Source of the DNA: Bacteroidota bacterium | Lineage (GTDB): Bacteria > Bacteroidota > Bacteroidia > Bacteroidales > VadinHA17 | DNA length: 64,000 nucleotides | Direction: 5' to 3' | Assembly (NCBI GenBank): GCA_029547705.1 | Contig: JAKPOU010000001.1 | Location: 71,437-135,436, forward strand | In this document: positions 5,935 through 56,113 of the stretch, in pieces | How the letters are laid out: each line of letters starts with the position of its first letter | Position numbering within the stretch: the stretch's first letter is position 1 | Position numbers and translations under genes: made by a program | Notes under the pieces: generated by a model | What the model was told of the DNA's origin: nothing | What the model saw: only the letters and a program-made list of their open reading frames with translations | Databases searched by the model: none

Positions 5935-7182
5935 ATGAAAAAAATAATTGTCATCGGAGGCGGATTTGCAGGTCTGCAGTTTATAAAAAACCTGAAGAAG
6001 GGATTGTATGACATCATGCTGTTCGACCGCCTGAACCATCACCAGTTTCAACCACTGTTCTACCAGGTTGCCACATCGCAGATTGAACCCACAAGCATCA
6101 CTTTTCCGCTGAGGAAAATATTCCAGAAAAGAAAGGATGTCAGCATCCGCTACGCGGAAGTACTATCCGTCAACCCCGGAAAAAATTCCATTACGACCAC
6201 TGCAGGTGACTTCAGTTATGATTTTCTGGTAATTGCCAGCGGCGGAAAAACAAATTTCTACGGAAATGAGCAGATAAGGAAGAATGCACTAAGTCTTAAA
6301 TCGACTTATGAGGCAATGAAGATACGCAATGTCATTCTGGAGAACTTTGAGAAAATCATCAATGCCGGTGAGGAATACCAGGACGGCCTCTTCAATATCG
6401 TTGTTGTGGGAGGCGGACCTACGGGCGTTGAACTGTCCGGGGCGTTTGCCGAAATAAAGAGAGACATTCTCCCGAAGGATTTTCCCGGAATTGATTTTTC
6501 AAGACTGAATATTTTCCTTCTGGAAGGAGGAAAGCATACCCTGAACAGCATGAGTGACATGGCGAAAAGAGTATCGGAGAAATATCTGAATAAGCTGGGA
6601 GTGATAATCAAAAAGGAAGTTTTTGTACTGGATTATGACGGTGAAACACTGAAATTAAGCAACGGGGAAGTTATCAGAAGCAAAAATGTAATATGGGCTG
6701 CCGGAATAACCGGTAATATAATAGAGGGTCTGGCTCCTGAGACAATAACCCTTACAAACCGTATAAGGGTTGACAGAATGAACAGGGCTGAAGGATATGA
6801 AAATATTTATGCCCTCGGCGATATTGCCTATATGGAAACACCAAAATATCCCAGGGGCCATCCCCAGGTTGCCAATGTTGCAATCAACCAGGGAAGGAAT
6901 CTTGCAAGTAACTTTAAGGCGATGGCATCCGGCAGGAAGCAGACCGAATATGAGTACAGGGATCTTGGATCAATGGCTACAGTGGGAAGGAACAAAGCCA
7001 TCGTGGACCTGCCCTTTATCAGGTTCCACGGATATTTTGCATGGTACTTCTGGATGTTCCTTCATCTGATGCTTATCCTGAGTGTCAGGAACAAGCTGAT
7101 CATATTCATCAACTGGGCATGGAACTACGTCACGAAAAACAGTTCCCTGCGGCTCATCCTGCAGACCGACGGTCAGAAATAA
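5935..7182 (+). CDS. ndh: Type II NADH dehydrogenase
   Basis: GGGFAG and GGGPTGVE Rossmann motifs, FQPLFYQVAT, IYALGD, GSMATVGR. Confidence 0.9.
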   Translation: MKKIIVIGGGFAGLQFIKNLKKGLYDIMLFDRLNHHQFQPLFYQVATSQIEPTSITFPLRKIFQKRKDVSIRYAEVLSVNPGKNSITTTAGDFSYDFLVIASGGKTNFYGNEQIRKNALSLKSTYEAMKIRNVILENFEKIINAGEEYQDGLFNIVVVGGGPTGVELSGAFAEIKRDILPKDFPGIDFSRLNIFLLEGGKHTLNSMSDMAKRVSEKYLNKLGVIIKKEVFVLDYDGETLKLSNGEVIRSKNVIWAAGITGNIIEGLAPETITLTNRIRVDRMNRAEGYENIYALGDIAYMETPKYPRGHPQVANVAINQGRNLASNFKAMASGRKQTEYEYRDLGSMATVGRNKAIVDLPFIRFHGYFAWYFWMFLHLMLILSVRNKLIIFINWAWNYVTKNSSLRLILQTDGQK

Positions 7183-43611: not shown

Positions 43612-44013
43612 TCAGTCCGTTTTGCTCATCAGGAGCTTCCCGTGCCTGATGCCCTTTATGGCTATCAGCTTGTCGGCCAGTTCAGTCAGCCTTTTAGCCT
43701 TACCCCTGACTGCAATGACCTCCAGGCATATATCCTGATTCAGGTAGAAATGCTGGGATGAAAGGATAACATCGAAATAGTTATGCCTGACATCATTTGA
43801 CTTTGTTATGATATCCTTCTTCTGCTGATCATAGATGATGATCACTGCGCCCGCAACAATATTGTTGCAATGCCATTTTTCCTCAACAATATTTTTTTCA
43901 ATAAGGTACCTCAGGCCCTGTGAACGGTTGGCGAAATTGTTATTTCCGACGTAATCATCCAGCTCCTTAAGCAGCTTTTCCTCAAGGCTTACACTAAATC
44001 GAACAACACTCAT
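43612..44013 (-). CDS. nikR: NikR family regulator (divergent metal site)
   Basis: RHH domain VRFSVSL...NRS, then an ACT domain ending GIRHGKL. H76, H87 and C95 equivalents present, H89 is Tyr. Confidence 0.88.
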   Translation of the reverse strand: MSVVRFSVSLEEKLLKELDDYVGNNNFANRSQGLRYLIEKNIVEEKWHCNNIVAGAVIIIYDQQKKDIITKSNDVRHNYFDVILSSQHFYLNQDICLEVIAVRGKAKRLTELADKLIAIKGIRHGKLLMSKTD

Positions 44014-44179
44014 CGTAACACAAATTTGATCCGGCGGGCATTATCTGCCGGGAGCCGGAATTATTTCCCTGATGCTTTCCGGCGGGCGGTCAGGAACCGT
44101 TATCATGCTTACGGCCTTTTCGCCGCCGGCCGGCCACTGTGTAAAGCAACGGTAAATTCCGCAGGTTCCCGTCCGGGTA

Positions 44180-45154
44180 TTACTGGCACTTAAGATTGGT
44201 TCTCTGTGCCTTTGATGCTTCAAGAAAAGGTCCGTACATGGCATTCTTAAATGAAGCACATGCTTCCGCATTCTGGCCTTTCCCCGCCTGTGCCACGGCA
44301 AGCTGGTAATAGAACTTTGCCTTGGCTTCAGCATCCCCGGTTTCCATATCCAGGCCCTTCTGTGCATATTCCGCACCGCTGTTGTAATTTTTCTGCTTGT
44401 TGTACACATCGGCAAAATAATAGAACAGATCCTTGTCATCTCCATATTTTGCGGATTTATTAAGCAGGCCGAGGGCTTCTTCGAGATTATCAGCCTGATT
44501 GGCCCTTGAGCCGGCTGCACGGAAATATTCAAGTGCAACTCCGGATGCCTGCTGAGCTCTTGCCGTGTCATTTGCTGCTGAGGCCTTTTCAATGCAAAGA
44601 TCAATGGTCCCCTCAAAATTTTCTGCATCATCCTGATTCCTGTACAGCAATGCCTTATTGAATATTGCCGCAGTGTAGTCAGGATTTATGGCCAGGAGGG
44701 AATCATAAACCAGCAGGGCATTATCATAGTCCCTGGTATTAAAATATTCATTGCCGAGGTTATAGTATCCCTGTACAAGCAGTTTATTTGCGTTTTCCCT
44801 GTGCGTTTCATTGTTATATTTTTCTGCGGCGGCAACTGCAGTCTTAGATGCTTTAATCAGTTCTGCCGCAGGCTTCTTTTCACTGAGAGCATCATTAGCC
44901 AGTCTGACATACAATCCCGGCAGAATCTGTATTGCCCTGTCCCTAAGATCATCACAGGTTTCGCCTACTTCGGCTGCAAGTTTAATGACATTTTCAAAAG
45001 CTTCAATGGAAGCATTCACATCGGTTTTAACGGTTTTTGCCCCTTCATTGTAAACCTTGATAACATCGCTTCTGGTCTGCCCGTTGAGATTGAAACCAAG
45101 TACGGCGGAAATGATCAGCATAACTGCAACCCTTCTTAATAAACGTAAGTTCAT
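44180..45154 (-). CDS. Secreted TPR-repeat protein
   Basis: Signal peptide and repeated Y/G/A helical TPR patterns. Confidence 0.8.
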   Translation of the reverse strand: MNLRLLRRVAVMLIISAVLGFNLNGQTRSDVIKVYNEGAKTVKTDVNASIEAFENVIKLAAEVGETCDDLRDRAIQILPGLYVRLANDALSEKKPAAELIKASKTAVAAAEKYNNETHRENANKLLVQGYYNLGNEYFNTRDYDNALLVYDSLLAINPDYTAAIFNKALLYRNQDDAENFEGTIDLCIEKASAANDTARAQQASGVALEYFRAAGSRANQADNLEEALGLLNKSAKYGDDKDLFYYFADVYNKQKNYNSGAEYAQKGLDMETGDAEAKAKFYYQLAVAQAGKGQNAEACASFKNAMYGPFLEASKAQRTNLKCQ

Positions 45155-45336
45155 AACAAATCAGATTTATTAATTAATAATCAAAGTCAGCAAATTTATT
45201 AAATAAAATTTATAAGGTCCGGTTTTCAGCCTGCCACAAAAGCAAAAATAACCATACTGCTCACTTAACATGATATTTTTTAAATAATTAAATCATGCAT
45301 TGGTCAAAATTTGTTAAAATTACTGCTTTTTTCCAA

Positions 45337-45356
45337 TTATGAACAAATGTTCATTA
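45337..45356. promoter_or_regulatory. Shared operator, copy 4
   Basis: TTATGAACAAATGTTCATTA overlapping the TAGCTTTG -7 element (45355-45362). Confidence 0.75.
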
Positions 45357-45501
45357 GCTTTGCAGTCCGGGCCGGCCCCCTTTCATCAGGGATCTGCGGG
45401 CATGAATGTTTAATATCCCGTACATCCGGGATATGTTCATTGGCATGATAAGGCGGCCGAAGCCCCGTAACGCGGGAAGGATTAACAAATTCAACATAAT
45501 C

Positions 45502-45822
45502 ATGAAAGTAGCCATTACCAGTACAGGCAGTACATCTGACAGCAAACTTGATCCGAGATTCGGCAGATGTTCGTATTTCGTCATCTATGATACTGACACC
45601 CGGGAAATGGAATTCATCCGGAATCCCAACAAGGATGCGACGGAAGGTGCAGGTCCGGCATCGGTTCAGACAGTTGCTTCCCGGAATGTTAAAAAAATCA
45701 TATCAGGAGAATTCGGTACCAAGATAAGATCCCTGCTTGACAGTCTCGGAATAGAGATGACAGCAATCCGGGATCCTGAAAAAAGCATATCGGATATTGT
45801 AGAAATGCTCGGTCAGCAATAA
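45502..45822 (+). CDS. NifB/NifX family (orange protein/MTH1175-like)
   Basis: MKVAI, LDPRFGR, EGAG, SGEFG. Track start is 45406. Confidence 0.85.
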   Translation: MKVAITSTGSTSDSKLDPRFGRCSYFVIYDTDTREMEFIRNPNKDATEGAGPASVQTVASRNVKKIISGEFGTKIRSLLDSLGIEMTAIRDPEKSISDIVEMLGQQ

Positions 45823-45892
45823 AACATATACACATGAAGCGGCCATGATGGAATGCACCGGGAGGCCTTTGTCAAACAAAACCAAAACAAAG

Positions 45893-46231
45893 ATGAAAAA
45901 AAGAATAGCCGTCCCGCTTGAAAACGGGATATTATGTACACATTTCGGCCATTGCCAGCAATTTGCCATTATTGACACAAACGAAAATATTATTACAGAG
46001 GAACAACTTATTACCCCGCCTCCTCATGAACCGGGTCTTCTTCCGGGCTGGCTGGCAGAAAAGGGAGTTACGGATGTGATAGCGGGCGGAATGGGTCAAA
46101 GGGCCATTAATTTATTCAATCAGCAGAAAATAAACGTATTTGTCGGTGCACCGGTCAAAACGCCGAATGAGCTGGCGAGCGATCTGCTCAGCAATTCACT
46201 GAAAGCGGGAGCAAATTATTGTGATCACTGA
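45893..46231 (+). CDS. NifB/NifX family protein
   Basis: RIAVP, CTHFGHC, PPPHEPG, AGGMG, NYCDH. Confidence 0.88.
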   Translation: MKKRIAVPLENGILCTHFGHCQQFAIIDTNENIITEEQLITPPPHEPGLLPGWLAEKGVTDVIAGGMGQRAINLFNQQKINVFVGAPVKTPNELASDLLSNSLKAGANYCDH

Positions 46232-46266
46232 AATTACGCAGGCATTTTGACCTGGCCTGTACCATA

Positions 46267-47145
46267 ATGATAAAAATTGCTATTGCCAGCGGAAAAGGCG
46301 GAACGGGAAAAACCTTCGTTTCCACTAATATCTTTTATGCTCTGACCCGGGAGAATATCAGTTCCGTTCTAGCAGACTGTGATGCCGAAGCCCCGAATGT
46401 ACTTTCATTCTTCAGGACTGTCAGGAAGGAGACTCATGAGGTTGTACAGCACGTGCCGGTGATAGATGTCAGCAAGTGCACTTTCTGCGGAAAATGCCAT
46501 GAATACTGTAATTACAATGCCATATTCATCCTGCCGCCGTCAGGAATAATCAGTGTGATTGAAGATCTCTGCCACGGCTGCGGTGCCTGCAGTGTTGCCT
46601 GTGAATATGATGCCATTACCGAAAAACCTTTTCCGCTTGGAAATGTTAATATTTCTCTGTACAACAATTCACACCCTGTTATTGAGGCAAGAATGAATAC
46701 GGGTATTATGTCACCGGTTAGGGTTATCAAGGAAGCTCTCAGGCATATCAGGCATGAGGCTGAAATAGTGATCCTGGACTCTCCTCCGGGAACATCCTGT
46801 CCTTTTATCCAGACAGTCAGCCAGGCTGATTATGTAATACTTGTTACCGAACCGACTCCATTCGGCCTGAGTGACCTCAGACAGAGCGTGGAAACACTCA
46901 GAACAATGGACAGTAAGTTTGGTGTGATTATCAATAAAGCGGGAATGGGCAACAATGATGTCAGGGAATACCTGAAAAAAGAAGGCATAGACCTTTTACT
47001 GGAAATACCTTACAGCAGGGAAACTGCCGGACTGTATTCCGCCGGCAGGCTGCTTGCGGAAGCTGATGAATCCTTCGGGAAACAATTGCTGAATGTTACT
47101 GAATACATTACCGGGAAATATGGAAATAGCAATAGTCAGCGGTAA
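46267..47145 (+). CDS. MinD/ParA-type ATPase with 2x[4Fe-4S] insert
   Basis: SGKGGTGKT, DCDAEAPN, two CxxCxxCxxxC motifs, DSPPGTSC. Confidence 0.9.
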   Translation: MIKIAIASGKGGTGKTFVSTNIFYALTRENISSVLADCDAEAPNVLSFFRTVRKETHEVVQHVPVIDVSKCTFCGKCHEYCNYNAIFILPPSGIISVIEDLCHGCGACSVACEYDAITEKPFPLGNVNISLYNNSHPVIEARMNTGIMSPVRVIKEALRHIRHEAEIVILDSPPGTSCPFIQTVSQADYVILVTEPTPFGLSDLRQSVETLRTMDSKFGVIINKAGMGNNDVREYLKKEGIDLLLEIPYSRETAGLYSAGRLLAEADESFGKQLLNVTEYITGKYGNSNSQR

Positions 47146-47992
47146 GGGCGGTACGGGCAAATCCAGCATTAGTGCGGCGTTTGCAACGGCCGGCGGCCGG
47201 GTTGTCATTGCAGATTGTGACGTTGATGCGGCAAACCTTTATCTGATATTCAATCCTGTTGATGAAGAAGAAACTGTATATGTATCAGGTCATAATGCTG
47301 TCATAAACTATGACCTGTGCACTAACTGCGGTTTATGTACAGACTACTGCCGCTTTGATGCAATATCAGCCGGGGATGATGGAATTGTAACCATCTCCGG
47401 GATTTCCTGTGACGGCTGCTTTCTCTGTTCACGCGTTTGTCCCGAGAAAGCCATTGAGATGATCCCCAATGACAAAAGCAGAATGTACTCAGGATCTTTC
47501 CGAAACGGCAGAATGGTTTACGGAAAGCTTGCCCCCGGGGAAGAGAATTCAGGGAAGCTGGTAAACATGGTACGCGAAAAGGCAAAGGAAACAGCCCGTG
47601 AAAATAATATCGGCACAATCATCCTGGATGGTCCCCCGGGAATAGGCTGCCCTGCAATCTCAACCATAACCGGTGCCGACAAGGTTGTCATCGTAACGGA
47701 ACCGACCATATCCGGATTGTCTGACCTGAAAAGGATGGCAGAGGTTACAGGGAAATTCAGCCTGCAGGCATTGGCCATCATCAACAAGTATGACCTCAAT
47801 ACTGAAATAAGCGGTCAGATTGAAGAGTGGTGCAGTCAGAACGGAATCCGTGTTATCGGAAAACTTCCCTTTGACAGCCGCATAACGGAAGCAATGATAC
47901 AGTCAAAAAGCATTACGGAATATAATCCGCAACTTGATATCAGTAATAAATTGAAAGAAATATGGCAACAAATCCTCAATCAAAACCAATGA
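47120..47992 (+). CDS. Second MinD/ParA-type ATPase with 2x[4Fe-4S] insert
   Basis: SGKGGTGKS, DCDVDAAN, two ferredoxin motifs, DGPPGIGCP. Confidence 0.9.
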   Translation: MEIAIVSGKGGTGKSSISAAFATAGGRVVIADCDVDAANLYLIFNPVDEEETVYVSGHNAVINYDLCTNCGLCTDYCRFDAISAGDDGIVTISGISCDGCFLCSRVCPEKAIEMIPNDKSRMYSGSFRNGRMVYGKLAPGEENSGKLVNMVREKAKETARENNIGTIILDGPPGIGCPAISTITGADKVVIVTEPTISGLSDLKRMAEVTGKFSLQALAIINKYDLNTEISGQIEEWCSQNGIRVIGKLPFDSRITEAMIQSKSITEYNPQLDISNKLKEIWQQILNQNQ

Positions 47993-48807
47993 ATGATCTT
48001 TTTGAAAAAATTCCCATGGAAGGGATCAGAAACATTATTGTTGTGGCATCCGGCAAGGGCGGAGTCGGAAAATCAACCGTAGCCGTCAACCTTGCAGTCA
48101 CCCTTGCCAGAAACGGTCTCAGTACCGCATTGTTCGACGCGGACATATTCGGTCCGTCAGTTCCCAGAATGTTCGGACTGGAAGATGTCAGGCCGGAAGT
48201 ATCAGCAGTCGGGGATAAGGAGATTTTCTTCCCGGTAAAGAAATTCGGGGTAAACATCATTTCAATAGGCTTTTTTATTGATCAGAGCCAGTCACTTATA
48301 TGGCGCGGACCCATGGCGGGAAAAGCAGTCACACAGCTTCTGGGTGATACCCAGTGGGGTGAAACCGATTACCTGATAATTGATTTTCCTCCGGGAACCA
48401 GTGATATCCAGCTTACTACCGTTCAGAAACTGAATCTTTCCGGAGCAGTCATTGTAACCACTCCGCAGGAAATATCACTCAACGATGCCCGTAAAGCAGC
48501 GTCCATGTTCAATAATCCCGATCTCAATGTTCCCATTCTCGGGGTTATTGAAAACATGTCGTGGTTTACACCTGAAAAGCATCCGGATGAAGTATATTAT
48601 ATTTTCGGAAAAGGCGGCGGACTAAGGCTGGCAAAGGAATTCAACACAGAACTGCTCGGACAGATACCCCTGGTTATGGAAGTGGGTGAAGCAGCGGATC
48701 AGGGACTGACTGTATTCAGTCAGAAAAACAAGCCGGTTGTAAAGGCTTTTGAACAGATAGCGGAATCAATAATTGCAAAAACCGAAAAAAGGGAAGCAGG
48801 GAAATAA
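47989..48807 (+). CDS. mrp: Mrp/NBP35 (ApbC) Fe-S carrier ATPase
   Basis: SGKGGVGKS, DADIFGPS, WRGPM, D.PPGTSD, ENMS. Confidence 0.92.
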   Translation: MNDLFEKIPMEGIRNIIVVASGKGGVGKSTVAVNLAVTLARNGLSTALFDADIFGPSVPRMFGLEDVRPEVSAVGDKEIFFPVKKFGVNIISIGFFIDQSQSLIWRGPMAGKAVTQLLGDTQWGETDYLIIDFPPGTSDIQLTTVQKLNLSGAVIVTTPQEISLNDARKAASMFNNPDLNVPILGVIENMSWFTPEKHPDEVYYIFGKGGGLRLAKEFNTELLGQIPLVMEVGEAADQGLTVFSQKNKPVVKAFEQIAESIIAKTEKREAGK

Positions 48808-48815
48808 ACCTGCTG

Positions 48816-49607
48816 TCAGAAAACCAGTACATCTCCGGTTTTGATCTGGCGGATTGCGAAAGCTTCATAAAAAGCTGCCAGTGCCGGAAGTTCAGTACAA
48901 TGTGAAGGGAAAACATGTTTCGCTCCCGTTTCACTGAGATATTTTATTGTTTCCCTGGTCGGGGTTGCGGTCGTTTTCAGGTGAAATCCTCCCATTATTC
49001 CGTGCAGCTTGCTGATCCCCGTAATCTTCCTGGCATATTCACAGGTGTTTACAATACCGGAATGACCGCATCCGCTTATTATAAACAGGCCTTCAGGGAG
49101 AATAACGGCAAGTGCGCTGTCGTCCTCAACAAAATCAGCAGTGCCATCTTCAAACCTGAATGTTGTCTTCCTGGACTCAAAATCCGTAATCCTCGGTATT
49201 GCTCCGAGAAAAATTATTTTTCCGCTGATCTGCAAGGGATCCGCAGAAGTTTTCAGATCAAATTTTGAGGATATTTCCTCCTCCGTCATTCCCAGTCCTA
49301 TATAAGTACCGTCCTGGCCTCTGAACCGCCTGACAAAGCATCCCGGATGACAAACAAGTTTCCCCCCGGGCAGAAAAGCAAGTCCGTTCCCGTGATCGAA
49401 GTGGCCATGACTCAATACCGTCATATCCGTATTATCAAGGCCGGCATTCAGTTTCTCAGCATTCCTGAGAAACATATCACTCTGCCCGGTATCAAAAAGT
49501 ATCTTCTTTCCGTCATATTCAATCAAATATGAAAGACCATGCTCAGCAGGAAAAAAAGATCCCGCGTGGTTGTCTGTAAGAACTGATATTTTAATTTGTG
49601 TCTGCAC
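48816..49607 (-). CDS. Metallo-beta-lactamase fold protein (MJ0448/TM1681-like)
   Basis: AEHGLS, FDTG, SHGHFDH, GCGHSG, GGFH, PSHCT. Confidence 0.88.
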   Translation of the reverse strand: MQTQIKISVLTDNHAGSFFPAEHGLSYLIEYDGKKILFDTGQSDMFLRNAEKLNAGLDNTDMTVLSHGHFDHGNGLAFLPGGKLVCHPGCFVRRFRGQDGTYIGLGMTEEEISSKFDLKTSADPLQISGKIIFLGAIPRITDFESRKTTFRFEDGTADFVEDDSALAVILPEGLFIISGCGHSGIVNTCEYARKITGISKLHGIMGGFHLKTTATPTRETIKYLSETGAKHVFPSHCTELPALAAFYEAFAIRQIKTGDVLVF

Positions 49608-49796
49608 CTGTGTGTATGAATATATGGTAACTGTTCATGTAGATTTACCCTGAAATACTGTATTCTGAAGCAATATCATTTATGTAAATTTAACATTTAT
49701 TACTATGCCTCTATTTTTATCTTAACTAAATCTTAATAAGTTTGTAAAGAGATTAAAGAAATTTAAATTTACCAGCCACCTCATTAAAGGATAAAA

Positions 49797-50174
49797 TTGT
49801 TAAAGCTGACTAAAATAGCAAGGATCTTCACACCACTGTTTCTTGTTATTGTTATTGGCTATATAACAAATGCAACTATAAACCAGCACTCCCATAAATT
49901 ATCTTCAGGGATTGTGGTCACTCATTCCCATCCTTTCAATAATGGCGGTACGGGGACTCCCTTTCAGGATCACAAGCATGGTAGCGAGGAATTAATACTC
50001 CTGAGCCAGATCTCCATTTCACTCTTCCGTATTTATCTTTTTATAATCATTCTGAGTACCACTGCTGCCATATCAGTTATTAAAACCCCTTTTCAACAGA
50101 ATTCTTCCGGAACATCCGGCCTTTTTTTTCTGAATAATTATCACGCACCTCCGCCAAGCACTCCGGGTTTCTGA
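49797..50174 (+). CDS. His-rich membrane-anchored leader protein ending in HAPP (DUF2946-like architecture)
   Basis: TM segment, QHSH, THSHPF, HKH, second hydrophobic stretch, NNYHAPPP near the C-terminus. Confidence 0.7.
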   Translation: MLKLTKIARIFTPLFLVIVIGYITNATINQHSHKLSSGIVVTHSHPFNNGGTGTPFQDHKHGSEELILLSQISISLFRIYLFIIILSTTAAISVIKTPFQQNSSGTSGLFFLNNYHAPPPSTPGF

Positions 50175-50242
50175 AGGACGGCAAGACAATCTAATCATTT
50201 ATTATTCACCTAATCAACTAAACAACTGACTGTTGTATAAGT

Positions 50243-51595
50243 ATGACTAAATATATTATAAATCTGTCCATTCTTTTATTTGTGATATCCATTTTTGATC
50301 TGGGCGCTCAGCGGCAAAACGTGGTTTATGTGAGCGAACAGGACTCACTCTTAAAACTAAAAGAAGAATTAAAGCTTCTGAAGACGGAATATATCGACAT
50401 CGCTTCAAGGTTTGATTCCCTTATTCAGGCAATTGACCGGAAGGAAAAAGCCGCTCAGGCTGAGAATGATTTACAGAAGCTGCTTGATGAGGCCAACCGT
50501 ATGGCCGCGCTGGAAAAGGAAAAGGAGGAGGATCTGGCGGTAAAATTCCAGAGCGGGGTAAGGCAGCAGCAGGCACTTAATCCGAATATCAGCCTCGGCG
50601 GGGATTTTTTCGGGGCCATCAGTACATCAGGTCATGAATTCATTTCCGAACCCGGTGAAATATCCTATGGAAACAACGGATTCTTCCTGCGTGAAATAGA
50701 AGTGGGCATTGAAGCTCCTCTCGATCCTTTTACCCGGGGGAAATCATTTATTTCCATTACCAGTGATGCGATAAACATTGAGGAGGCCTATATGGAATGG
50801 CTGAACCTTCCTCTGAACATGAATCTTAAAATCGGTATATTCTATACCGAATACGGTCCCATCAACAGGTATCATGATCATGCACTGCCCCAGTTTGACA
50901 GGCCGAGGGCCCTGGTAAACCTTTTCAGCAACCAGGGACTCGGCGGAACAGGTGTTTCAACGACTTTTATGCTGCCAAGGCTCCTTTTTTCTGATGCAAG
51001 CTCCCTGGACCTGAGTGTTCAGAAGGGTACTCCCACGGAAGATATTTTCAGTTTCGGCAATAAGGGCTTCCTGTATTCGGGGCAGTTTAAAAATTATTAT
51101 GATATAAGTCAGAACAGCTATTTTGAAGTCAGACTAAGCAATGTGACAGGCAGAAATCCTGTGCCGGGAAACAACCTGTCCAGCGTCGGAAGCCTTGGCA
51201 TGTCATATAAATGGGTTCCGGCCGGCCGTGAGAAATACCGGACCCTTGACTGGAAATCCGAATTTTTATACAGTTACCGCAGGGAACATACCGGCAGTAT
51301 CAGAAGCATTGGATTTTATTCCACCGTTCAGAACAAGCTGAATGCAAGATTTACAGCCGGCGCCAGAATAGGCTACTCCCAGCTGCCCTATGACAATAAG
51401 CAGTATGAATGGGATTATACCGTGAATCTTGACTTCTGGCAGAGCGAATTTGTTTTTGCAAGAATTCAGTATCAGTATAACCGGCGAAACCTGACGGATT
51501 TTCAGCCAGATCCGCCTGGCATGATGCCGAATGACCACTCGGTTATTCTGCAGGTATGCTGGGCAATGGGCCCCCATAAACATGAAGCTTATTAA
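50243..51595 (+). CDS. Putative outer-membrane beta-barrel associated with metal uptake
   Basis: Signal peptide, coiled-coil N-region, LNPNIS.GGDF, alternating beta strands, C-terminal GPHKHEAY. Confidence 0.7.
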   Translation: MTKYIINLSILLFVISIFDLGAQRQNVVYVSEQDSLLKLKEELKLLKTEYIDIASRFDSLIQAIDRKEKAAQAENDLQKLLDEANRMAALEKEKEEDLAVKFQSGVRQQQALNPNISLGGDFFGAISTSGHEFISEPGEISYGNNGFFLREIEVGIEAPLDPFTRGKSFISITSDAINIEEAYMEWLNLPLNMNLKIGIFYTEYGPINRYHDHALPQFDRPRALVNLFSNQGLGGTGVSTTFMLPRLLFSDASSLDLSVQKGTPTEDIFSFGNKGFLYSGQFKNYYDISQNSYFEVRLSNVTGRNPVPGNNLSSVGSLGMSYKWVPAGREKYRTLDWKSEFLYSYRREHTGSIRSIGFYSTVQNKLNARFTAGARIGYSQLPYDNKQYEWDYTVNLDFWQSEFVFARIQYQYNRRNLTDFQPDPPGMMPNDHSVILQVCWAMGPHKHEAY

Positions 51596-51613: not shown

Positions 51614-52714
51614 ATGAAAAGAAATATAAAGAGTTTTTCAAGAATGAATAAAGGGATCCTGATACTGACGGCCGTACTCTTGTTTCAGGGAATTCATTTC
51701 AGCGTAACGGCCCAGCAAAGGGCTCAGGTCAGATACAGAGGCGGCGGATCCGACAGACCGCTCAACATTATCTGTTCTTTTTCCGACTTTGCAACCATTA
51801 CTGAATACATTGCCGGCAACAGGGCCCAGGTAAGCTATATTGCAAGCGGTGAACGGGATCCTCATTTTGTTCCTCCCAAGCCCAGTTATGCGGTCATGCT
51901 TTCAAGGGCTGACATGTGGATTGCCACAGGTATGGATCTTGAAATGTGGTCAGCTACTCTTCTTGACAAGGCACATAACCCCAGGATTATGGACGGTGAA
52001 CCGGGATTTGTTGCTGCTGCCCAGGGAGTCAATGTTGTTGAAAAAGTTGAATTTGCAAGCCGTTCTGAAGGAGATATTCACCTTATGGGGAATCCCCATA
52101 TTACCACCGGTCCGCTTAACTGGAAAGTGATAGCCCAAAATATCACAATAGGCCTCATCAAGGTTGACCCTGCCAATGCAGCCCTGTATCAGAAAAACAG
52201 GGATGCTTTTATTGACAGGGTCGACAGGGCGCTTTTCGGTAACAGGCTTGTTGATCTTTTCGGTGGTCCCACTCTGTCGAAAATGCTGGAAAACCAGACT
52301 TTATTTACCTTTCTGGAAAGACCCTATGAAGGAGGAAAGCTTTCGGATCAGCTGGGAGGATGGCTGAAAAAAGCCATGCCCTTCAGGGGTATGCGCATTG
52401 TAACCTATCATAAGAACTGGTCATATTTTACCAATACATTCGGGCTTGAAGTGATCGGATACATTGAACCGAAACCGGGTATTCCGCCTTCAGCCAAACA
52501 TGTACAGACAATGATCGATATGATAAAAACACAAAATATCAAGGTGATGATGATTGCCACCTATTTTGAGAAAAAAACCGCACAGATGATTGAGGCAAAA
52601 ACAGGTATCAGGGCTGTTTACCTTCCGCTTCACGTAAATGCGGTACCGGGTGTGGATGATAATTTCAAGCTGATTGACTATCTGATCGATCAGATAAATG
52701 CCAGTATAATCTGA
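51614..52714 (+). CDS. TroA/ZnuA-type Zn/Mn ABC substrate-binding protein
   Basis: DPHF, GNPHI, YHKNW.YF, EPKPGIPPS. Confidence 0.88.
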   Translation: MKRNIKSFSRMNKGILILTAVLLFQGIHFSVTAQQRAQVRYRGGGSDRPLNIICSFSDFATITEYIAGNRAQVSYIASGERDPHFVPPKPSYAVMLSRADMWIATGMDLEMWSATLLDKAHNPRIMDGEPGFVAAAQGVNVVEKVEFASRSEGDIHLMGNPHITTGPLNWKVIAQNITIGLIKVDPANAALYQKNRDAFIDRVDRALFGNRLVDLFGGPTLSKMLENQTLFTFLERPYEGGKLSDQLGGWLKKAMPFRGMRIVTYHKNWSYFTNTFGLEVIGYIEPKPGIPPSAKHVQTMIDMIKTQNIKVMMIATYFEKKTAQMIEAKTGIRAVYLPLHVNAVPGVDDNFKLIDYLIDQINASII

Positions 52715-52764
52715 ACGGAAATTCACCTGCCTGACAAAGCCTTAACAAATAAATACTATCATTC

Positions 52765-53610
52765 ATGTTGGATAACATCCTTTTTCTTTCAGCTCCCATT
52801 ACGGTAAGCATCCTGATGGCCGGAATACTTGCCTATTTCGGAAATCACATCCTGACCAGAGGAATTATTTTCATTGATATAGCAGTTGCCCAGATAGCAG
52901 CACTGGGCACAATGATAGGCCTTCTTCTGGGCCTGGCTGAGGAATCATCAGGTGTACAGCTTATTTCATATGCATTTACAATAGTTGTAATTGCATTGTT
53001 CGCCCTGACAAAATTCCGCGATCAGGTCATTCCCCAGGAAGCAATTATAGGAATAATATATTGTATAGGATTGGGTCTTGCCATGCTCCTGGCTGAAAGG
53101 ATTCCGGGCGGTGCGAATTTCATTTCAAAAACCATTACCGGCAACCTGCTGTGGGTCACCTGGAGTCAGGTTCTCAACTGTTTTCTTCTGTTTCTGGCAG
53201 TTGCCATTGTGCATCTTTTTTTCCGGAAGCATTTTATAGCTATTTCCGATACAAAGAAAGGATTGCCTTACAGCCTGTGGAAAACCAGGTCATATGAACT
53301 GATATTCTACATAACCTTTGGAATTGTCATTGTGAAAGCCGTGCCTGTCGGAGGCATTTTCATGGTATTCATACTTCTCATTGCTCCGGCAGCAGCAGCA
53401 ACACTGTTTACACAATCGTGGAAAAAGAGATTTATCTGGAGCTGGATAATAGGTATCGCGGGTTCCGTTTCCGGAATGTACGCTTCATACAAGCTGAATA
53501 TATCAAATGCTCCAGCAATAGTAAGCCTGCTCAGCCTGACGGTTTTCATACTGGCATTCATCAAACTCGCAGCAGGCAGATTCAAAACAGACAATATTAA
53601 AAAGCAATAA
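52765..53610 (+). CDS. ABC-3 family metal permease
   Basis: FGNHILTRGIIFIDIAVAQIAALG, EAIIG, many TM segments. Confidence 0.85.
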   Translation: MLDNILFLSAPITVSILMAGILAYFGNHILTRGIIFIDIAVAQIAALGTMIGLLLGLAEESSGVQLISYAFTIVVIALFALTKFRDQVIPQEAIIGIIYCIGLGLAMLLAERIPGGANFISKTITGNLLWVTWSQVLNCFLLFLAVAIVHLFFRKHFIAISDTKKGLPYSLWKTRSYELIFYITFGIVIVKAVPVGGIFMVFILLIAPAAAATLFTQSWKKRFIWSWIIGIAGSVSGMYASYKLNISNAPAIVSLLSLTVFILAFIKLAAGRFKTDNIKKQ

Positions 53611-53614
53611 CCCC

Positions 53615-54472
53615 ATGGCTGAAGCACTTGTATTTATGTCAACGCCTTTTGCCGGCTCTCTTCTGCTGATAATAATAATGGTATATTTCGGAATTCACGT
53701 CATAGAAAGAGAAATTATTTTTATCGATATTGCACTTGCCCAGATTGCCGCTCTCGGAAGTGCCGTATCACTCGTTATTGCCACTGTTTCCCCTGATGCC
53801 TCCCATGACGTTCATGATCATGACTCAAGAACATTCCTGGCATATTTTTTCTGCCTTATAGCAGCGGGGATATTTACCCTTCTCAAAGACAGGCGGCTGA
53901 ACATACCTCTCGAAGCTGTTATCGGGATAGCCTACGCAATGGCAACAACCAGTGCGGTAATTATTCTCGACAAGGGCGCGGGAAGCGATGTACACATTCA
54001 TGATATGCTTGCGGGAACAATTCTCTGGATTTCCTGGGGTCAGGTTCTCAGACTATTTCTTGTAATACTGCCTATAGCCCTGTTGCATTATTTTTTCAGG
54101 GATAAATTCAAATCCGTCACTCTTGCATATCAGAACAAGGAAAGCGATATTAAAAATCCAAAACTATGGGATTTCATTTTTTATCTGACTTTCGGAATCA
54201 TTATAGTGGAAGCAGTTAGCATAGGAGGTATAGTAACAATCTTCGCATTCCTTATCATACCTGCAGCGATATCTGCCCTTTTCAGTACCCGCTGGACACA
54301 GAGAATCCTTATCGGTCTGCTGACCGGGGGCATTGCCGTAATCTTCGGACTCTACCTTTCATGGGTACTGGATGTTCCATGTTCCCCTACCATCATACTC
54401 TTCCTTGCGGTTTTGCTGCTTCTGGCAATCATTTTAAAAAGTATTATGAAAATCCGGAGGACAGCAGAATAA
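53615..54472 (+). CDS. ABC-3 family metal permease (paralog)
   Basis: FGIHVIEREIIFIDIALAQIAALG, EAVIG, and a His-rich loop HDVHDHD. Confidence 0.85.
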   Translation: MAEALVFMSTPFAGSLLLIIIMVYFGIHVIEREIIFIDIALAQIAALGSAVSLVIATVSPDASHDVHDHDSRTFLAYFFCLIAAGIFTLLKDRRLNIPLEAVIGIAYAMATTSAVIILDKGAGSDVHIHDMLAGTILWISWGQVLRLFLVILPIALLHYFFRDKFKSVTLAYQNKESDIKNPKLWDFIFYLTFGIIIVEAVSIGGIVTIFAFLIIPAAISALFSTRWTQRILIGLLTGGIAVIFGLYLSWVLDVPCSPTIILFLAVLLLLAIILKSIMKIRRTAE

Positions 54473-54515: not shown

Positions 54516-55091
54516 ATGACTGATTCTGAATTAATAACATTAATCCTCCAGGGCGACAGGGATTCATTCCGTATTCTTGTTGAACGCTACCAGCAGATGG
54601 TGTTCAGAACCTGCATGGGTTTCCTCCATAACAGGGAAGAAGCTGAAGATCTGGCACAGGATGTTTTTATCCGGGCTTATCAGTCCCTGTCCCGTTTCAG
54701 GGGAGAGTCGGCTTTTTCCACCTGGCTTTACAGGATCGCCGTAAACGCTTCACTTAACAGGACCAGGCGGTCTTCCCTGAAAATTACATTTGAAACACTG
54801 GAAAACACGGTCATTTCCGCCCCGGCAACAAGTGAGGATGATCCTGAAAAGATTCTGATCAGCCGGGAGCAGTCAGTGTGGCTCAGGCGGGCTGTCAATT
54901 CACTTCCTGAAAATCAGAGAACTGCAATCATACTGAGCAAATATGAGGATCTGTCCCAGAAAGAGATTGCAGAAATAATGATGACAAGCGAGGGAGCCGT
55001 GGAATCCCTGTTGTTCCGCGCAAAAAGAAACCTTCGTAAAAGATTGTCATCCGAAAGTAAAAAGATTGAAAAGAGGCACAGGAAAAAATAA
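54516..55091 (+). CDS. ECF RNA polymerase sigma factor
   Basis: AEDLAQDVF, FSTWLYRIAVN, LPENQR, LSQKEIAEIM. Confidence 0.93.
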   Translation: MTDSELITLILQGDRDSFRILVERYQQMVFRTCMGFLHNREEAEDLAQDVFIRAYQSLSRFRGESAFSTWLYRIAVNASLNRTRRSSLKITFETLENTVISAPATSEDDPEKILISREQSVWLRRAVNSLPENQRTAIILSKYEDLSQKEIAEIMMTSEGAVESLLFRAKRNLRKRLSSESKKIEKRHRKK

Positions 55092-55105
55092 AATTTTGTT
55101 TCTAA
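55077..55105 (+). promoter_or_regulatory. Candidate ECF promoter, copy 1
   Basis: CACAGG-N15-GTTTCTAA upstream of the anti-sigma gene. Confidence 0.5.
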
Positions 55106-55122
55106 CCATAAAAAGCGTTGAG

Positions 55123-55539
55123 ATGAATTGTCGTTTTTATCAGAAAGAAATTGATTCCTTTCTGGAAGGAAGATCCGGTCCCGCCGCAAGGGAACAGATT
55201 GAATCACATCTCAGGGAATGCAGGGAATGCAGGGAATATTACAGGATTCAGCTGCTGGCCGAAGAGCTGATATCAGAAGAAAAACAACTGAAGGTAAACC
55301 CTTTCCTTTCTGCACGCGTGATGTCACGGATTAAAAATCCGGAATCCCTCAGAGAGAAAAAGGTTCCGGGCATACTGAAACCGGCCCTGGTGGTATTGTC
55401 GGTTGCCGCAGCAATTTTTCTTGGTATCGTGATGGGAAGTATTCCCGGCCTGAGCCGGGGCAGCAGGCCTGTTCCTGCTGAACTGAGCATGATGAATGAT
55501 GCCCTGCTGGAATCGGTTGAACTGCTTGCAGCTGATTAA
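55123..55539 (+). CDS. Zinc-binding anti-sigma factor (ZAS) with TM segment
   Basis: HLRECREC (HxxxCxxC) and one TM helix. Track start is 55066. Confidence 0.85.
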   Translation: MNCRFYQKEIDSFLEGRSGPAAREQIESHLRECRECREYYRIQLLAEELISEEKQLKVNPFLSARVMSRIKNPESLREKKVPGILKPALVVLSVAAAIFLGIVMGSIPGLSRGSRPVPAELSMMNDALLESVELLAAD

Positions 55540-55540
55540 A

Positions 55541-56113
55541 ATGAACATCATGAGAACCGGCAGCAGATACCACTGGATGATATGGGCAATAATTGCACTG
55601 GCCCTGATGAATGTCACCACCTTTGCAACCATCCTGGTCAACAGGGGCAGAACAGTAAAGACCGGCATGCTTCACCTGCCGGAGCAAGCGTACTCAGACA
55701 GGACTTCACTCCGTTACAGCGGAAGATATTTCCGCGACCACCTGGGTCTGACCAGGGAACAAATGTCGAGGTTCACGGAATTCAATCCCGTATTCAGAAG
55801 AAATGCAAGAGAAATAAATATCAGCCTGGCGGAGCTGAGAAGGCAGATGATGATCGAAATGTCTGCGGAAACGAGTGATACCGTAAAACTGAATACCATT
55901 TCGGATTCAATAGGCCGCCTCCACAGCCGCCTGAAAAAGATAAGCTGGGAATATTATCTTGACCTGAAAAATATATGCAATAAGGAACAGGAGGCAAAAC
56001 TTGAAGAAATGTTTGGCTCAATGTTTACGCCTGACGGTCAGGAATTCCGGCGCGGTCCCGGTGGATTCCGGAATCCGCCCGGCCGGGGTCAGGGCAGACG
56101 GCCCGGCATCTGA
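55541..56113 (+). CDS. Spy/CpxP/heavy-metal-resistance-like periplasmic helical protein
   Basis: N-terminal TM, LGLTREQ and a second degenerate LTxxQ motif (CNKEQ), RG-rich tail. Confidence 0.75.
   Translation: MNIMRTGSRYHWMIWAIIALALMNVTTFATILVNRGRTVKTGMLHLPEQAYSDRTSLRYSGRYFRDHLGLTREQMSRFTEFNPVFRRNAREINISLAELRRQMMIEMSAETSDTVKLNTISDSIGRLHSRLKKISWEYYLDLKNICNKEQEAKLEEMFGSMFTPDGQEFRRGPGGFRNPPGRGQGRRPGI

Follow-up and report, generated by a model that had tools for sequence, protein, structure and literature searches.

A histidine-rich membrane protein ending in HAPP as a candidate metal-sensing ribosome-arrest leader of a zinc-type uptake operon in Bacteroidota

Results

A two-helix histidine-cluster protein precedes a ZnuA-type cassette

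We analyzed a 64,000-nucleotide (nt) stretch of a Bacteroidota genome (assembly GCA_029547705.1, contig JAKPOU010000001.1; hereafter the window), in which a small open reading frame (ORF) is followed, on the same strand, by a gene without a named family (gene 2), a gene for a ZnuA-type substrate-binding protein and two ABC-3 permease genes (Table 1). The protein encoded by the small ORF has two predicted transmembrane (TM) segments, a histidine cluster and a C-terminal HAPP motif. As argued below, this ORF heads a zinc-type uptake operon and is probably, though by no means certainly, a metal-sensing ribosome-arrest leader, which would sense while being made.

Table 1. Features of the leader gene, its upstream region and the downstream cassette (positions of the window, forward strand numbering; aa, amino acids; AF2, AlphaFold2).
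Feature	Position	Strand	Basis
Putative Bacteroidota-type -7 promoter element TAAGTTTG (TAnnTTTG)	49737..49744	+	53 nt upstream of TTG start; read from sequence
Leader gene, 125 aa, two-TM His-cluster protein ending NYHAPP + 6 aa	49797..50174	+	ORF call, TTG start
TM1, residues ~9-27, predicted N-in/C-out signal anchor	49821..49877	+	hydropathy; AF2 helix 2-28
Predicted periplasmic His cluster H31, H33, H43, H45, H59, H61	49887..49979	+	invariant or near-invariant columns
TM2, residues ~63-94	49983..50078	+	hydropathy; AF2 helix 63-94
Predicted cytoplasmic tail/spacer, fixed length, unconserved	50079..50135	+	column conservation; AF2 coil
NYHAPP, putative arrest core	50136..50153	+	clade invariance; R/H interchange; published HAPP arrest
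68-nt intergenic region, 13 C versus 9 G, candidate Rho entry region	50175..50242	+	composition; folding versus shuffles
Small hairpin/palindrome ACAAC-TGACT-GTTGT	50222..50236	+	6 nt before gene 2 ATG; identical in L002
Gene 2, 450 aa, outer-membrane channel-like	50243..51595	+	signal peptide, long helix, about 18 beta strands
ZnuA-type substrate-binding protein	51614..52714	+	PF01297, 144 bits
ABC-3 permease 1	52765..53610	+	PF00950, 95.5 bits
ABC-3 permease 2	53615..54472	+	PF00950, 85.9 bits

The leader ORF opens with TTG, holds no in-frame ATG across its whole length and is preceded, 12 nt upstream, by an in-frame TAA. Behind the first TM segment the protein carries three short histidine motifs, HSH (residues 31–33), HSHP (43–46) and HKH (59–61), then a second hydrophobic segment and, at residues 116–119 (50142–50153), HAPP, which in this protein reads HAPPP. 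The six residues PSTPGF follow HAPP, so that the stop is the seventh codon after the motif, and the ATG of gene 2 at 50243 lies 68 nt past the leader stop and 90 nt past HAPP. The initial annotation of this DNA had listed this same succession of TM segment, HSH/HSHP/HKH cluster, hydrophobic segment and HAPP, with the 90-nt distance, and all of these were found in place. It had also spoken of a leader and an arrest peptide; the product is a two-TM protein of 125 residues and not a short peptide. The protein contains no cysteine, and hence neither a CXXC nor a CxxxC copper motif. AlphaFold2 modeling with the family alignment gave a predicted local distance difference test score (pLDDT) of 82, with the two helices and coil tail of Table 1 and a beta-hairpin (residues 30–34/40–44) bearing the first two histidine pairs.

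A phmmer search of 1.84 billion cluster representatives with the window leader protein as query (cut-off E≤1e-3) retrieved 630 homologous representatives, nearly all of 115–130 amino acids. Aligning 125 of them showed H31, H33, H43, H45, H61, P118 and P119 to be invariant, and G38, P46, P55 and H59 to be conserved in at least 90% of the members. The frequency of the top residue averages 0.88 in the C-terminal motif and 0.56 in the histidine region, and falls to 0.16 in the tail, the least conserved part. Pfam and NCBIfam returned a named family neither for the window leader nor for any of the 125 relatives, the sole recurrent signal being a match below cut-off to NF053668 (HypB_prefix_2, the histidine-rich N-terminal region of HypB) in 81 of the 125. 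Mean net charges are +2.2 for the N-terminus, -0.5 for the histidine loop and +2.5 for the tail, a positive-inside pattern which argues for a topology with the N-terminus inside, the loop outside and the tail inside.

The C-terminal motif was tallied in 152 sequences, 148 of which carry xxPP within their last 25 residues; the remaining four are truncated fragments. RAPP is the most frequent form (75 sequences), followed by RGPP (27), HAPP (15), RSPP (12) and RPPP (5), with a few K variants, and in full-length members the motif [R/H/K][A/G/S/P]PP lies 1–11 residues (mode 2–3) from the stop. Its distance from the upstream elements is strikingly uniform: 54–57 residues separate the last conserved histidine from the first proline in about 97% of members, and the end of TM2 precedes PP by a median of 26 residues. 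Within the window's own genome, 3181 ORFs of at least 150 amino acids contain HAPP not once and RAPP a single time. Taken together, these results confirm that the family is a real and widespread gene, conserved far beyond chance. One member in genome G141 (L028, 1520–1990) has RASP in place of RAPP (CCT to TCT) and reads 31 residues further into the start of a 773-amino-acid receptor gene, a variant that reflects either natural motif loss or a sequencing error.

HAPP members form a clade tied to the ZnuA-type cassette

We examined nine distinct loci of the HAPP clade, namely the window, a 65%-identical homologue (L001/L002) and seven loci on long contigs whose leaders are 28–46% identical to that of the window. 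All nine have the same order of leader, 59–81-nt spacer, a 429–450-amino-acid protein, ZnuA and two ABC-3 permeases, while the flanking genes vary. The second protein always sits between leader and ZnuA, with a mean column identity of 70% over eight loci. The window's gene 2 product has no match in Pfam or NCBIfam and ends in GPHKHEAY. Its AlphaFold2 model is poor (pLDDT 47.6) and was used for secondary structure only, indicating a helix of about 75 residues followed by about 18 strands; judged from this model, gene 2 may represent a new family of outer-membrane channels for metal.

The best alignment of the binding protein is to Synechocystis ZnuA, and its DPH, NPH and YH motifs align with the ligand histidine positions of 1PQ4/2OV1, which we take to be the zinc ligands of that protein. 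A ZnuA-fold protein with a three-histidine site next to ABC-3 permeases is the combination that characterizes ZnuABC-type (cluster A-I) systems. The initial annotation had proposed zinc, nickel or cobalt; the retained three-histidine site points, tentatively, to zinc. A gene for the ABC ATPase (ZnuC) is absent from the cassette in all nine loci, the rest of the genome not having been searched for one; the ATPase must be encoded elsewhere or be shared.

A profile was built from 12 HAPP members. It retrieved 181 proteins, the best 120 of which were inspected, 112 of them new. By automatic tally 103 of these 112 contain HAPP; inspected by eye, four further sequences end in NYHAPP and five in N(Y/N)RAPP, so that nearly all share (N/H)YHAPP. 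Immediately upstream of the motif, the clade has Y at position -1 in all members, N at -2 in 88%, L or V at -4 and Y or F at -6, positions at which RAPP members are variable. The extended motif of the clade is thus Y.(L/V).NYHAPP, and the third proline of HAPPP is not part of what is conserved.

Within the HAPP clade, NYRAPP occurs in at least three lineages. One such protein (P0219) is 87% identical to an NYHAPP protein (P0198) and also heads a ZnuA cassette. The family tree, poorly resolved as expected from so short a protein, was used solely to assess the clustering of the H state: calculated without the motif columns, it requires 10 changes compared to 48 with shuffled labels, and at least two R/H changes are forced by its supported branches. 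The occurrence of NYRAPP and NYHAPP in near-identical orthologues, together with the changes on the tree, indicates that R and H are interchangeable at the first motif position in this clade. The His-for-Arg variant suggested by the initial annotation therefore holds as a clade-specific substitute for RAPP, and is not new as a motif (PMC10987492). Plausibly, the conserved Y.(L/V).NY segment compensates in HAPP members for a weaker histidine contact.

Relatives of the leader head other metal transporters

When 400 other Bacteroidota genomes were searched, only 14 proved to carry the leader family. Twelve of the 13 strong hits precede a protein of about 760–800 amino acids, 10 of these being confirmed by Pfam as CarboxypepD_reg + Plug + TonB barrel receptors, and the thirteenth precedes an RND adaptor and pump. 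At all nine HAPP-clade loci and all 13 RAPP-type loci the leader lies directly upstream of the next gene or genes and is co-directional with them. Conservation ahead of metal transporters, to which the initial annotation had looked as a check, is thus what the loci display, the leader standing first before metal-transport genes.

The window's own genome holds two paralogues of the leader. One (L010, 4897–5280; G000:C58:70896–71279, plus strand) encodes 127 amino acids ending in KFRGPPPLRLL, and lies 85 nt upstream of genes for a CzcB adaptor, a CusA/CzcA heavy-metal RND pump (865 bits, above cut-off) and TolC; in a single genome, therefore, one putative sensor family heads an exporter as well as importers. 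The other (L011, 5140–5427; G000:C17) keeps the histidine motifs and ends in NRPWAPSLR, without PP. Downstream of it lie a 136-amino-acid ORF resembling a receptor fragment and then, on the opposite strand, AAA-ATPase/DUF262-like genes, suggesting that this is probably a decayed locus in which motif and target were lost together. On contig C58 of the same genome (minus strand, about 52386–52856) an unrelated hydrophobic ORF of 156 amino acids with HHHH and several cysteines ends in LRAPPAA, and is a candidate for a second type of RAPP leader.

The intergenic spacer, the upstream region and the neighboring genes

Between leader and gene 2, C exceeds G in eight of the nine HAPP-clade loci, and in six of the nine the strongest C–G skew of the operon falls on the leader 3′ end and spacer. 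The window spacer has no more structure than shuffled sequence (z = +1.3), and its composition is consistent with a Rho entry region. Genes for Rho and for elongation factor P (EF-P) were both found in the window's genome. The idea that a specific RNA switch connects the stall site with gene 2 was considered and dropped, the nine folds having no common architecture. The window lacks pairing of the proline codons with the gene 2 start region, and at the other loci such pairing is weak or inconsistent.

Hairpins of 5–7 base pairs, differing in sequence, were seen by eye at the place equivalent to 50222–50236 in seven of the nine loci, and the minimum-energy fold has a local stem before the gene 2 ATG in four (the window, L002, L041 and L045). 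At L040 (about 6900–6935), upstream of the leader, there is a palindrome, ACAACATG-N15-CATGTTGT, related to ACAAC-TGACT-GTTGT; palindromes of this type could be RNA hairpins or binding sites of a regulator. Inside the leader ORF, a terminator-like hairpin (CCGGA-ACA-TCCGG then CCT8, 50107–50129) lies 13 nt before the His116 codon. It was rejected as a conserved attenuator, since its T-run codes for a conserved LFFL and relatives have the hairpin in weak form or not at all.

Elements of the form TAnnTTTG or TATATTTA were found 18–60 nt upstream of the leader in six of seven other HAPP-clade loci, from which we infer that the -7 element of the window belongs to the leader promoter. The stretch that separates this putative element from the leader's TTG includes a perfect palindrome of 12 nt, AAATTTAAATTT (49759–49770), which may be an operator and would then add transcriptional control to the leader.

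After the cassette, at 54516–56113, follow genes for an extracytoplasmic function (ECF) sigma factor, a zf-HC2 anti-sigma factor and a Metal_resist-like protein, an arrangement repeated at L001/L002 and not at the other HAPP-clade loci. On its other side (43612–49607) lie a NikR-like gene and genes for Nitro_FeMo-Co, two ferredoxin-insert CbiA/ParA ATPases and Mrp. Two distant loci (L039, 13259–14366; L041, 14011–14372) again have Nitro_FeMo-Co and CbiA/ParA-Fer4 genes close to the cassette, which hints at a functional link with metal-cluster assembly or nickel.

Discussion

Published arrest leaders and a possible mechanism

In Bordetella pertussis, CruR (Bp2923, DUF2946/PF11162) has a CXXC motif and, three residues from its end, RAPP, at a spacing fixed at 45 residues (Roy et al. 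2022, PMC9426467). As long as the ribosome is arrested at RAPP, the downstream TonB transporter stays on; copper lifts the arrest and so permits Rho termination (PMC9426467). Arrest of CruR is demonstrated in Fujiwara et al. 2025 (PMC12992588). CutF of Rhodobacter capsulatus, likewise DUF2946, has the motif GPPP; in this case copper induces EF-P-sensitive stalling, which unmasks the cutO ribosome-binding site, and the CutF protein is degraded rapidly (PMC9973294; bioRxiv 10.1101/2025.02.05.636593).

Fujiwara et al. 2025 found proteomes to be depleted of RAPP and RGPP, and small exported proteins encoded before TonB receptors, RND adaptors and copper genes to be enriched in these motifs at the C-terminus; mutagenesis of the second motif position found Gly fully, and Ser, Pro and Asp partly, permissive (PMC12992588). 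The second-position residues of the leader family (A/G/S/P) fit this arrest-permissive set. Natural HAPP belongs to the 'RQH' arrest family of Fujiwara et al. 2024, in which uDF_RQH_Lachnospirales stalls in the Bacillus subtilis PURE system and the H129A exchange lowers the arrest (PMC10987492). Structurally, the motif arginine forms five hydrogen bonds with rRNA besides its stacking on Psi2504 (PMC10951233); by analogy, a histidine in its place could stack on Psi2504 and would not reproduce the five hydrogen bonds.

Following this precedent, a model for the window leader can be proposed in which TM1 inserts with its N-terminus inside, placing the histidine cluster in the periplasm. With the ribosome at the two prolines of NYHAPP (by analogy, Pro118 in the P site and Pro119 in the A site), the tail would fill the exit tunnel, TM2 would just be emerging, and the histidine cluster, 54–57 residues back, would be at the outer mouth of the translocon. 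The ribosome would pause at Pro118/Pro119, and how long the pause persists would be set by tension on the nascent chain, arising from metal-dependent folding of the histidine hairpin, from TM2 insertion, or from both. Under the logic of CruR, favored here because the target is an importer, a ribosome stalled at low metal would shield the C-rich, weakly structured spacer from Rho and the operon would be transcribed; bound metal would release the arrest, the ribosome would terminate, Rho would load and downstream expression would fall. By analogy with the published leaders, we infer the stalling as such, the metal sensed, the polarity of the response and the involvement of Rho. Motif, spacing, topology signals and synteny lend in silico support to the CruR/CutF-like, histidine-based metal leader that the initial annotation had envisaged. 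Bacteroidota do not rely on Shine-Dalgarno (SD) pairing, and both translation initiation and Rho differ in this phylum from the E. coli model.

A more tentative extension, possible though rather doubtful at present, is that the HAPP clade represents a 'softer spring', in which histidine in place of arginine, compensated by Y.(L/V).NY, weakens the arrest, the family as a whole being a histidine-based, non-copper periplasmic sensor of the zinc/nickel class at work as a nascent chain. A small force, generated when the histidine hairpin folds on metal or when TM2 inserts some 26 residues away from the peptidyl-transferase center, would then suffice for release, and the set-point of a high-affinity zinc importer would be tuned in this way. 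Were this true, near-identical orthologues that in nature differ by R versus H would provide direct evidence of tuning.

Alternative explanations

That the ORF is a chance reading frame or a non-coding leader region would accord with its TTG start and with the missing Pfam or NCBIfam match. The probability of this is vanishingly small, and we regard it as refuted by the 630 homologous representatives of the same length, their invariant residues and the syntenic orthologues at 28–65% identity. The gene might instead encode a stable small inner-membrane metal-binding protein (a metallochaperone, a sensor or an accessory subunit), with [R/H]xPP serving structure or interaction and without regulatory stalling. 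The confident prediction of two helices and a histidine-bearing hairpin would suit such a protein, as would six conserved histidines, more than a minimal sensor needs, the weak resemblance of the histidine region to the HypB nickel-binding prefix and a cassette that has no ATPase and includes unknown partners. A single specific partner is nevertheless hard to reconcile with the three unrelated transporter types (ABC, TonB receptor and RND) that the family heads. The tail that bears the motif, moreover, is unconserved and unstructured yet fixed in length, the motif admits those residues that permit arrest, RAPP-like motifs are otherwise avoided in proteomes (PMC12992588), and in all cases the gene comes first, in the same orientation as those after it. 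On this balance we consider a stable protein unlikely.

The leader could also act with the opposite polarity, as CutF does, with metal inducing or prolonging an EF-P-sensitive polyproline pause at HAPP(P), so that the mRNA is remodeled and the gene 2 start is unmasked from the 50222–50236 hairpin, a translational mechanism without Rho. CutF acts in this way with an arginine-less GPPP and the window motif reads HAPPP; EF-P is present in the genome; hairpins stand just 5′ of the gene 2 ATG in the seven loci counted by eye (four by minimum-energy fold), several of them including an SD-like GGAG; and a paralogue heads a CzcCBA efflux pump, a target that metal could sensibly induce. For an importer, on the other hand, to be induced by the very metal it takes up is physiologically improbable, the stall site is 60–90 nt from the hairpin and thus outside the ribosome footprint, the folds of the nine loci contain no conserved long-range pairing, and the third proline is not conserved in the clade. 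Regulation of the CutF type at the window locus hence appears quite improbable.

Several observations weigh against the metal-sensing arrest leader that we favor. In ApcA, ApdA, ApdP and SecM the arginine of RAP is irreplaceable, all 19 substitutions including histidine having abolished arrest (Fujiwara et al. 2025, PMC12992588), and the HAPP of uDF_RQH_Lachnospirales stalls well only in the B. subtilis PURE system and little in vivo, possibly because of EF-P (PMC10987492). TTG is the sole start codon available to the leader, and the confident two-helix hairpin leaves room for a stable membrane protein. The C over G skew is modest in the window (86th percentile) and partly due to proline codons, and the minimum-energy folds of the nine loci (z from +1.3 to -3.8) share no architecture, so that no conserved RNA switch was found from stall site to gene 2. 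Finally, importers and an exporter both follow family members and one polarity cannot fit all; by analogy with CruR and CutF, polarity would have to differ among family members.

Significance

Tests of whether a nascent, half-exported peptide can sense metal have been confined to copper and to two proteobacterial DUF2946 proteins. If our reading is correct, the family extends this principle to histidine ligands and probably to zinc-class metals, and one family would cover ABC importers, TonB receptors and heavy-metal efflux pumps in Bacteroidota. The HAPP clade would offer a natural experiment, with R or H at the key position before the same operon, that could show tuning of arrest strength. 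These leaders are annotated as hypothetical proteins, and the annotation of operons and regulons in gut and environmental Bacteroidota improves once they are recognized.

RAPP-like leaders before metal genes are already known (catalogued in 2025), as is HAPP arrest (2024). The source lists of the 2025 catalogue include RAPP/RGPP members of the leader family, placed ahead of TonB receptors and RND adaptors and labeled 'hypothetical protein'; its abstract, sections 7 and 13 and term searches yielded no description of the family, and ZnuA-type binding proteins are not among its top 30 RAPP-enriched downstream gene classes (PMC12992588). A search restricted to RAPP/RGPP, as in that catalogue, would miss the HAPP core. 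What is new is the two-TM histidine-cluster family as a unit, the tie between the HAPP clade and the ZnuA-type cassette, the natural R/H interchange and the fixed spacing of 54–57 residues.

Comparison with known systems

The closest parallels to the window leader lie with CruR, like which it is a small exported or membrane-anchored protein, its gene standing first in a metal-uptake operon, and in both proteins the periplasmic metal motif keeps a constant spacing from a RAPP-type motif that lies at the C-terminus within a few residues of the stop. The readout proposed for the window leader, an arrest that guards against Rho termination and is relieved by metal, would likewise be shared. It differs from CruR in having a histidine cluster instead of CXXC, an extra TM helix between sensor and motif, a HAPP core and a spacing of 54–57 instead of 45 residues, and also in its target, a ZnuA-type ABC importer as opposed to a TonB receptor, and its Bacteroidota host. 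PF11162 matched neither the window leader (at E≤1) nor any of the 125 family members (at E≤0.01), and the window's genome contains no DUF2946.

With CutF the leader shares the character of a putative nascent exported metal sensor with an arginine-less proline motif near the C-terminus, and the GPPP of CutF shows that such a core can serve a metal-sensing leader. CutF, in contrast, is cysteine-based and carries a Sec signal peptide, and its copper-induced stall melts a stem-loop over the cutO ribosome-binding site, switching on a detoxifying enzyme. Like the leader, the uDF_RQH_Lachnospirales peptide is the small, membrane-targeted product of an upstream ORF and has a HAPP core occurring naturally at its C-terminus. 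That Firmicutes peptide, however, monitors secDF, and thus protein export and not metal, and has no similarity to the leader outside the motif.

Considered as a member of the RAPP-like (RQH-type) class, the leader has fewer than 300 amino acids and an N-terminal TM segment, bears a motif of the [R/Q/H][A/G]PP type near its C-terminus and lies directly upstream of, and co-directional with, its neighbor. In the strict sense of RAPP, which has arginine first, it departs by its His116, at a position where the clade tolerates R. As in the CruR/CutF (DUF2946) group, with CruR as the example, the distance from metal motif to arrest motif is fixed. Overall, sequence and the lack of a cysteine motif place the leader outside DUF2946, yet in every testable feature it appears alike.

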